Source: Pseudomonas phage EKU1. Taken from it: 57,133 nucleotides of DNA. Under the pieces are notes generated by a model. The model ran no database searches, had not been told where the DNA came from, and saw only the letters and a list, made by a program, of their open reading frames with translations. The stretch's first letter is position 1; each line of letters begins with the position of its first letter. The translations under genes and the position numbers were made by a program. Shown one piece after another: positions 32,441 to 32,477 of this stretch. The stretch lies in the sequence record PV844354.1; one strand, written 5' to 3'.

Positions 32441-32477
32441 CTTTACTTCTTCGGATTGACCCACTATACTTCTTCAC
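32441..32477 (+). promoter_or_regulatory. Conserved phage promoter: −35 TTTACT (32442-32447), 17-bp spacer, −10 TATACT (32465-32470)
   Basis: CTTTACTTCTTCGGATTGACCCACTATACTTCTTCAC. Confidence 0.6.

Follow-up and report, generated by a model that had tools for sequence, protein, structure and literature searches.

We identified a complete promoter-like element on the plus strand at 32441-32478 of the 57,133-nt stretch of DNA analysed here (the window), comprising a -35 hexamer TTTACT (32442-32447), a 17-bp spacer and a -10 hexamer TATACT (32465-32470), with a predicted transcription start at the A at 32478. The element lies upstream of the orthologue of gp28 of the phage YuA (ATG at 32548), and positions 32441-32477 read CTTTACTTCTTCGGATTGACCCACTATACTTCTTCAC, exactly as a first-pass annotation of this DNA had given them. 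Six full two-block copies of the consensus TTTACTTCTTCGG-N8/9-(A)CTATACTT(T)CTTCA are present in the window, five on the plus strand (32442, 34475, 39606, 40347 and 42097) and one on the minus strand (9294), together with one further minus-strand copy with a degenerate -10 (12042) and several half-sites. Recurrence of the motif by chance is excluded, with approximately zero copies expected, and the earlier claim that its count exceeds chance holds. Across the window TTTACTTCTTCGG is matched 12 times with up to two mismatches (7 of them exact) against 0.46 expected, the octamer ACTTCTTC 19 times against 1.19, and the whole pattern with up to three mismatches twice against 0.00. From 60 copies in relatives, with the window left out, we built a two-block weight matrix. 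It scored the six full sites at 46-62 bits (59.5 bits for the 32442 copy), and nothing in 20 Markov-simulated genomes exceeded -4.8 bits; by this matrix the six belong in sequence to the full-motif Yuavirus promoter class. Six promoter-like sites fall within 30-48 kb against 0.7 expected, four of which are motif copies. The motif had also been called genome-wide, a description that is too broad, as past 45.3 kb, in the structural/lysis half, none turned up in our block scan of the window. It marks the DNA-metabolism and host-takeover region only, and 46-57 kb is not marked.

The window is Yuavirus-like, with 92-94 % DNA identity to the P. aeruginosa phages PaTs-2, Churro, AN14, M6, LKO4 and PAE1 and approximately 90 % to YuA. 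Among phage records no identical sequence turned up, the best match reaching approximately 93-94 %, and Yuavirus-like contigs in an 'Anaerolinea' metagenome-assembled genome share approximately 93 % identity with it. Comparison with YuA places a junction between two pieces in opposite orientation at 30981/30982. YuA 19484..1 plus 58663..47586, reverse-complemented, make up window 14-30981, and YuA 21173..46060 makes up window 30982-57133, with approximately 1.7 and 1.5 kb missing and breakpoints inside the primase gene and the tail genes. The genes annotated in YuA, M6 and CN1 share a single strand with every full motif copy of these phages, and the other relatives have the same one-strand layout. 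The apparent two arms, initially read as leftward operons in 1-19.6 kb and rightward operons in 32-57 kb, are created by this head-to-head join and are not a property of the phage, and the left-hand copies in the window lie on the opposite strand only because the join is mis-oriented. Almost every YuA protein aligns to the window as frame-shifted pieces with stops, and part of gp01 is replaced by low-complexity sequence. Relative to M6 the window shows 600 gap events per 42 kb (83 % of 1-2 nt) compared with 103 for YuA, at substitution levels of ~5.7 % and ~5.8 % respectively, and it contains 96 homopolymer runs of at least 6 nt (up to G29) compared with 6 in YuA, as well as poly-G/C patches. 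Because of these frameshifts, the excess of gaps, the homopolymers and the low-complexity replacement we regard the window sequence as corrupted or synthetic, and its gene arrangement is not to be trusted as it stands. Few of its features are as well preserved as the promoter copies.

The motif has been described before, as the phage-specific promoter of Yuaviruses (YuA/M6-like siphophages that infect P. aeruginosa). The YuA record NC_010116.1 (Ceyssens et al. 2008) contains 28-bp repeats at 7722, 10500, 22639, 29058 and 31098, all five labelled 'putative sigma70 promoter requiring phage-encoded cofactor', and promoters are also annotated at these motif sites in the LKO4 record. Primary 5′ ends of YuA transcripts have been mapped by ONT-cappable-seq in samples pooled over time (Putzeys et al. 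2024, microLife 5:uqae002; PMC10914365), and nine start sites classed there as 'phage promoter' share the motif (MEME E = 2.7e-26). We found the full motif at all five of the starts P006 (2914), P008 (7758), P010 (22676), P012 (29094) and P013 (31134) given in Table S3 of that study, the start being the 7th or 8th nucleotide after TATACT. Carried to the window by orthology, this distance agrees with the 6-8 nt proposed in the first-pass annotation. Alignment places P010, P012, P006 and P003 at window positions 32478, 39641, 17414 and 19504, and synteny places P008 and P013 at 12042 (minus strand) and 42097 (plus strand); the window sites at 12042, 9294, 17427, 32442, 39606 and 42097 correspond in position to P008, the YuA repeat at 10500, P006, P010, P012 and P013, respectively. 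Over the 50 nt upstream of P010 the YuA sequence is the same as window 32429-32478. The structural/lysis half of YuA is served by sigma-54 and ordinary sigma-70 promoters (NC_010116.1), and the YuA sigma-54 promoter P015 maps elsewhere by alignment, to window position 50240.

Each coordinate originally listed holds something within 1-2 nt, although three of the descriptions needed correction. The plus-strand calls at 34473, 39605 and 42096 were full copies with a 17-bp spacer as proposed. The first of these (34474-34510; -35 at 34475-34480, -10 at 34498-34503, predicted start ~34510, 58.6 bits) is a 43-bp cassette absent at this position from YuA and M6/AN14 and present in LKO4 and several metagenomic relatives; the LKO4 record annotates a promoter and a terminator there. 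The 39606 copy (39600-39641; -35 at 39606-39611, -10 at 39629-39634, start at 39641 by orthology) is orthologous to YuA P012 and is preceded by an A/T-rich tract gaatCGAAGAAAGTTGcat at 39572-39590 with the look of an UP element, which at the same time repeats the ACTTCTTCG box imperfectly in inverted orientation. For this copy the LKO4 record has a terminator that overlaps the promoter. The 42097 copy (42087-42132; -35 at 42097-42102, -10 at 42120-42125, predicted start 42132, 62.0 bits) lies upstream of an anti-restriction gene (gp45 orthologue) and is syntenic with P013. For the copy called at 40346 (40346-40384; -35 at 40347-40352, -10 at 40371-40376, predicted start ~40382-40384, 46.4 bits) we confirmed the 18-bp spacer and the variant -10 TATTCT; its orthologues keep the 18-bp spacer with a -10 of TATACT. 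It heads an accessory gene of ~440 bp which is absent from YuA.

Two minus-strand elements required re-description. The site near 9283, previously described as a -35 only, is a full copy with variant boxes (9259-9298; -35 TTTACTTCTTCCG at 9294-9282, -10 TAGACT at 9271-9266, 49.0 bits) upstream of a radical-SAM gene (gp12 orthologue). It corresponds to the annotated YuA repeat 10500-10527, at which no start site was called by ONT (Putzeys et al. 2024). The copy reported at 12013-12050 (12007-12045) has an exact -35 box at 12042-12037, but its -10 has degenerated to TAAGAT (12019-12014; predicted start ~12007), so that the block scores are +31.3 for the -35 and -17.3 for the -10. The gp08 orthologue follows it, an A-tract ctgaaaaagttt precedes it, and it is syntenic with P008.

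Motif sequence is also present at 17427, ~19515, 19605 and 437 on the minus strand and at 45268 on the plus strand, in each case as a single block rather than a full copy. Two of these are -10 blocks at mapped YuA starts. The block GCTATACTTCTTCAG (17414-17429, minus strand) places a start at 17414 as the orthologue of P006, the -35 box of YuA being replaced in the window by a T-rich tract. The -10-only promoter TATACTTCC/GCTATACTTCC (19504-19519, minus strand) has its start at 19504, orthologous to YuA P003 (814), which was assigned to the 'phage promoter' class (Putzeys et al. 2024); the helicase gene (gp02 orthologue) is directly downstream. The half-sites listed at ~19597, ~430 and 45261 exist as sequence, but YuA offers no start-site evidence for them. 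That at 19593-19605 (minus strand, CATACTTCTTCAG) has the same sequence at YuA 714-726. The intergenic -35 box TTTACTTCTTCGG at 45268-45280 (plus strand), before the small terminase gene, has no -10 at 16-18 bp, and its YuA counterpart is TTTACTTTTTCGG at 33252. The -10-type block TCTATACTTCTTT/TCTATACTTCTTTTC at 425-439 (minus strand) lies inside the dCMP-deaminase gene (gp23 orthologue) and is kept in place in YuA (19057) and the Bordetella phage CN1 (20389); as no start site is reported for it in YuA, its conservation may reflect coding constraint.

The original list of sites omitted a further half-site, TATACTTCTTCAG/TCTATACTTCTTCAG at 19863-19877 on the plus strand (19865), antisense to the left-hand genes. 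Its positions 19866-19877 form with 19593-19605 a perfect 12-nt inverted repeat, the two partners lying 261 nt apart. The half-site corresponds to YuA 454-442 on the minus strand, where no start site is reported.

The blocks themselves are conserved well beyond the window. Scanning IMG/VR with the motif gave 31 loci, all but one of which are Yuavirus-like with 70-93 % identity to the window; the exception, L027, is A/T-rich, has no similarity to the window and was set aside as a chance match. In 67 unique copies from relatives at 70-93 % DNA identity the blocks do not vary, in contrast to the 8-9 bp filler and the flanks, which are free to change; the same footprint of conserved blocks is seen when eight diverged orthologues of the 32442 copy are aligned. 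Bordetella phages of the sister genus Vojvodinavirus carry the motif 4-5 times per genome, and in block scans the copies of phage CN1 precede the same genes as those of YuA. We also scanned one genome per bacterial species (185,579 genomes, 596 Gb), in which the motif was present on phage-like contigs binned in two metagenome-assembled genomes and in ~15 further unrelated single matches, against ~17 expected by our own estimate; it was absent from the Pseudomonas and Bordetella chromosomes of this set. As only phage-like contigs and chance-level single matches were recovered, mimicry of a host regulon was rejected, and the motif is a signal proper to this phage lineage, not one taken from a host regulon.

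The two blocks form a near-perfect direct repeat, CAC-T(T/A)TACTTCTTC, 23-24 bp apart, and the matrices of the two blocks cross-score. The two ACTTCTTC half-sites noted earlier are accordingly a real repeat, though a 1-nt insertion is tolerated in the second copy, which often carries an extra T (TATACTTTCTTC) after TATACT, and not in the -35 block. Such a repeat could be read by a phage sigma replacement directing the core polymerase to T(T/A)TACTTCTTC boxes 23-24 bp apart. The cross-scoring of the blocks would fit this, as would the statement of the ONT authors that the motif 'does not resemble bacterial promoters' (Putzeys et al. 2024, PMC10914365) and the large number of small early proteins without an assigned function that YuA shares with CN1 (gp47 with 98.6 % and gp46 with 92 % identity, for example). 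We consider it improbable, however, since the insertion tolerated in only one of the two blocks argues against a single protein reading both alike, and none of the proteins scanned gave an above-threshold match to sigma-70 region 2 or region 4.

The geometry of the motif fits the earlier suggestion of sigma-70-type promoters, as do the YuA starts mapped at orthologous sites, one with identical sequence. TTTACT and TATACT match TTGACA and TATAAT at 9/12 positions across the optimal 17-bp spacer, with a canonical distance to the start. An A/T-rich tract AAAAAAGTTG lies 11-20 nt upstream of TTTACT in about half of the copies, with an A+T fraction of 0.59-0.66 compared with a background of ~0.3 across the 67 unique copies. 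The tract has the appearance of an UP element, which would point to the alpha subunit of the host polymerase, and when inverted it is also an imperfect match to the box. Informal comparison of consensus sequences gave no fit to AlgU/RpoE, RpoH, FliA or RpoN promoters, and the sigma-54 element (GG-N10-GC at -24/-12, of the TGGCAC-N5-TTGC type) is absent from the motif sequence. On paper these are good sigma-70 promoters, and the host polymerase could in principle read them unaided, their conservation reflecting recent duplication or an optimal context; the lack of a recognisable phage RNA polymerase or sigma factor among the ~30 small YuA proteins searched with Pfam/PHROG would be in keeping with this. 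Recent duplication is nevertheless excluded as the sites are syntenic between Pseudomonas and Bordetella phages. In addition, the blocks are invariant across genera at positions which sigma-70 does not need or read, namely the T at -35 position 3, where sigma-70 prefers G, the spacer CTTCTTCGG and the CAC before the -10. Four of the cloned YuA repeats had no reporter activity without phage, as Putzeys et al. 2024 relate from the 2008 paper, while other YuA sigma-70 promoters cloned on plasmids were reportedly active in uninfected P. aeruginosa. Unaided sigma-70 recognition is for these reasons unlikely, although the negative reporter result may have another cause given how well the motif scores as a sigma-70 promoter.

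In about half of the copies the -35 box is enclosed by a hairpin or forms part of one, with stem sequences differing between copies. At 39606 a GC-rich hairpin (39600-39626, -16.2 kcal/mol) encloses the -35 box, at 42097 the hairpin spans 42087-42112 (-13.7 kcal/mol), and at 9294 it is built from the box itself (9298-9272, -12.1 kcal/mol). Energies of -12 to -16 kcal/mol at these three sites are within background at 66 % G+C. We rejected folding energy alone as a test of significance in favour of a permutation test, because random 37-mers of the window fold at -9.6 +/- 4.2 kcal/mol. Pairing of each copy's own flank and filler averaged -8.0 kcal/mol compared with -6.8 kcal/mol when permuted, and 0/200 permutations were as good. 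The YuA 3′ end T013 maps at 29082 inside P012, 3 nt past the stem, and was not classed as intrinsic by ARNold; by orthology the 3′ end of the upstream transcript is predicted near 39629 in the window. Terminators overlap four of these promoters in the LKO4 record, and Rfam detected no known RNA family in leaders across the whole window. The hairpin copies resemble intrinsic terminators in having a GC-rich hairpin followed by a pyrimidine/U-rich run CACUAUACUUUCUUCA, and differ in their long loop (9-15 nt), their interrupted U-tract and their occurrence in about half of copies. With moderate confidence, we interpret them as combined terminator and promoter units, a single stretch of 40 bp perhaps terminating the preceding transcript and initiating the one that follows.

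Copies appear to be gained and lost as discrete cassettes where relatives differ in gene content. At 34475, comparison with YuA 24640-24700 gives an exact 43-bp insertion/deletion that holds the copy, and the YuA deletion at 40347 runs from GGGGC|TTTACTTCTTC to GGGC|TGCTTCTTCAC, removing the copy and the gene behind it. Both of the two gain/loss junctions examined lie at a box, which would be consistent with recombination at the boxes.

Taken together, the Yuavirus promoter is probably read by the host RNA polymerase with a sigma-70-type factor assisted by an infection-specific factor. Each full copy is bipartite, with a 13-bp -35 block, 8-9 bp of free filler and the -10 block CAC-TATACT-T(T)CTTCA, the filler setting the 17/18-bp spacing of the hexamers and transcription in YuA starting 7-8 nt after TATACT. 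Host polymerase with a sigma-70-type factor is the most likely enzyme because the geometry fits and many copies have the UP-like tract. Activity would be confined to infected cells, most likely because a phage protein reads the invariant non-sigma-70 positions (candidates being the -35 T, CTTCTTCGG and the CAC before the -10). The copies would drive DNA-metabolism, DNA-modification and host-takeover genes and not structural genes. That a phage factor might take part had been raised in the first-pass annotation, in agreement with the published view expressed in the label of the YuA record and with the inactivity of the cloned repeats without phage.

Pfam/PHROG searches of the ~30 small YuA proteins returned no sigma, MotA or AsiA homologue, the only relevant matches being gp25 and a DksA-like zinc finger. 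The first of these, of the XRE helix-turn-helix type and also kept in CN1, is encoded in a stretch missing from the window; it has only a sub-threshold match to sigma-70 region 4, typical of helix-turn-helix proteins, and we found no relative of it with a solved structure. The DksA-like protein has 63 amino acids and is encoded directly upstream of the P012-type copy. Neither is specific as a cofactor, and no candidate is defensible. A solved structure exists for gp49 (3pes), the entry describing an 'uncharacterized protein'. gp01, whose gene comes first after a sigma-70-type start, is improbable as a regulator since its hydrophobic C-terminal stretch reads as a putative membrane helix.

The silence of the plasmid clones would also be explained if hypermodified thymidine of the 5-(2-aminoethyl)uridine type, and not a protein, enabled recognition of the boxes, since the clones are unmodified. 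This suggestion is our own. According to the literature M6 has 5-NedU in place of thymine and YuA is cut by nucleases targeting hypermodified DNA; the window lineage encodes an amino-acid:DNA transferase and Nmad5, and for a genome of 66 % G+C the motif is unusually rich in T. A sequence specificity of the modification or an effect of it on RNA polymerase is however purely hypothetical, and other YuA promoters cloned on plasmids were reportedly active, making this explanation very improbable. A wider proposal would have CAC-T(T/A)TACTTCTTC either read by an undiscovered phage factor or dependent on hypermodified thymidines, unlike MotA/AsiA, with the 40-bp unit serving also as a terminator/promoter/recombination cassette that shuffles accessory genes. 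In this combined form we consider it doubtful.

As an element the motif has little discovery value, having been annotated since 2008 in the YuA GenBank record, with starts mapped genome-wide in 2024. New here are the synteny with Bordetella phages, the absence from the host chromosomes scanned, the -35 hairpins, the A/T tracts and the apparent cassette turnover. The key question is what restricts these promoters to infected cells, and the activating factor, once identified, would reveal how a phage without an RNA polymerase reprograms the host enzyme. Yuaviruses are therapeutic and model phages with hypermodified DNA, and the conservation, the Bordetella-phage synteny and the cassette turnover lead to defined 37-bp baits and mutational targets.

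The closest counterparts of the window copies are the YuA phage promoters, with which they share the motif, the spacing and the position before orthologous genes. They differ in that the full copies at 34475 and 40347 are present in the window and absent from YuA, while in the window the P006-type copy is without its -35 box and the P008-type copy without its -10. Among better-known systems, the middle promoters of phage T4 operate by sigma appropriation through MotA and AsiA and are silent without phage proteins. Like them, the Yuavirus motif is reportedly inactive without phage, combines a good sigma-70 -10 with a conserved phage block at -35/-30 and drives replication and nucleotide-metabolism genes; it differs in the sequence of the block and in keeping TTTACT at the canonical 17 bp, and neither MotA nor AsiA has a homologue among the YuA proteins scanned. 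The PeSL elements of T4-type phages, reportedly mobile regulatory cassettes made of an early promoter and a stem-loop, share with the motif a repeated promoter and stem-loop among small accessory genes; the coincidence of motif copies with gain/loss boundaries, seen at the two junctions examined, may be a further likeness. The Yuavirus motif belongs to a different phage lineage and differs in sequence, and its stem-loop overlaps the -35 box instead of following the promoter.

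Frameshifts and in-frame stop codons disrupt nearly every gene in the window, whose longest stop-free stretch is 614 codons, compared with 1112 in YuA. In the alignment to M6, gap events, most of them 1-2 nt long, number 600 per 42 kb, which is six times the figure for YuA versus M6 at an equal level of substitution. The window contains 96 homopolymer runs of ≥6, compared with 6 in YuA and 8 in the Bordetella phage CN1, and its long poly-G and poly-C runs, the longest being G29, are clustered in patches (11431-11555, 25039-25105, 28588-28690, 37833-37945, 42244-42390, 42942-43070, 47724-47865 and 49513-49795) which fall at gaps of the alignment with YuA. 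As it stands the sequence is not that of a functional genome, and is either error-rich or synthetic. Hypermodified DNA could also account for poor base-calling if the window derives from long reads.

Alignment to YuA further identified 30981|30982 as the junction of two Yuavirus genome pieces in opposed orientations, whereas the corresponding sequences are co-linear and co-oriented in all relatives. The breakpoints, at this junction and at the window ends (1 and 57133), lie within the primase gene and the tail genes. Approximately 1.7 kb corresponding to YuA 19485-21172, comprising the end of gp24, the helix-turn-helix gene gp25 and the primase N-terminus, is absent from the window, as is approximately 1.5 kb corresponding to YuA 46061-47585.

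Several of the start codons found behind the promoter copies in all relatives are missing from the window (34538, 39686, ~42165 and ~9225). The ATG following the 34475 copy is changed to ATC and that following the 39606 copy to GCG, with an upstream in-frame ATG inside AGAATGGAG still present at 39668. Leaders downstream of the copies have a ribosome-binding context in common, the conserved CAGAAA(T/A)GGAG(A/C)AC, examples of which occur at 39660-39675, 40400-40415 and 42150-42165, and paralogous leaders resemble one another (CACGTTGAACAACTTGTAGAAATGGAGAACTGAAATG). The shared context together with the similarity of the paralogous leaders suggests a single module in which the promoter moves along with its leader and ribosome-binding site. 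The ortholog of the YuA start site P016, a member of the 'phage promoter' class, was located at 51151 (+), where it heads a conserved non-coding leader 5′ of the major head gene; its -10 element reads TGTACT in the window and TATACT in YuA.

Repeats of the (GAA)n/(CTT)n type, together with AACTTACTT repeats, lie in the intergenic region between gp01 and gp02 (window 19640-19710, YuA 600-670). Associated with this hub are start sites of the 'phage promoter' class in divergent orientation, YuA P002 corresponding to 19707 (+) and P003 to 19504 (-), and ATACTTCTTCAG boxes form a perfect 12-nt inverted pair 261 nt apart. The hub may act as a control region or as an origin. In the gp01 ortholog, the 3′ part (19925-20020, -) is replaced by sequence of low complexity rich in G, C and T, at a position where YuA encodes the hydrophobic C-terminal stretch of gp01.

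Two small host-takeover proteins, gp46 (YuA, L002, 31630-31965; window ~42640-42942) and the 70 aa gp47 (YuA 31988-32200; window ~43088-43174), share 92% and 98.6% identity respectively between the Pseudomonas phage YuA and the Bordetella phage CN1, well beyond the genome average. Such sequence conservation hints at a host target that is itself highly conserved.

Genome scans of the species-representative set placed Yuavirus- and Vojvodinavirus-like contigs, including some of 111.8 and 81.4 kb, in metagenome-assembled genomes (MAGs) of unrelated bacteria. Among these are loci L046, L052 and L061 (DYKZ01000001/2) in an 'Anaerolinea thermophila' MAG and L040, L042, L045 and L050 in the Microbacteriaceae MAG BP8.4, and their presence there is probably due to binning contamination.

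This phage lineage encodes an amino-acid:DNA transferase (PF18724; YuA 8773-9648) and Nmad5 (PF18757; YuA 13629-14189), with window counterparts on the minus strand at ~10142-11021 and 5590-6131 respectively. Their assignment as thymidine hypermodification machinery is consistent with the hypermodified thymidine 5-NedU carried by the Yuavirus M6.
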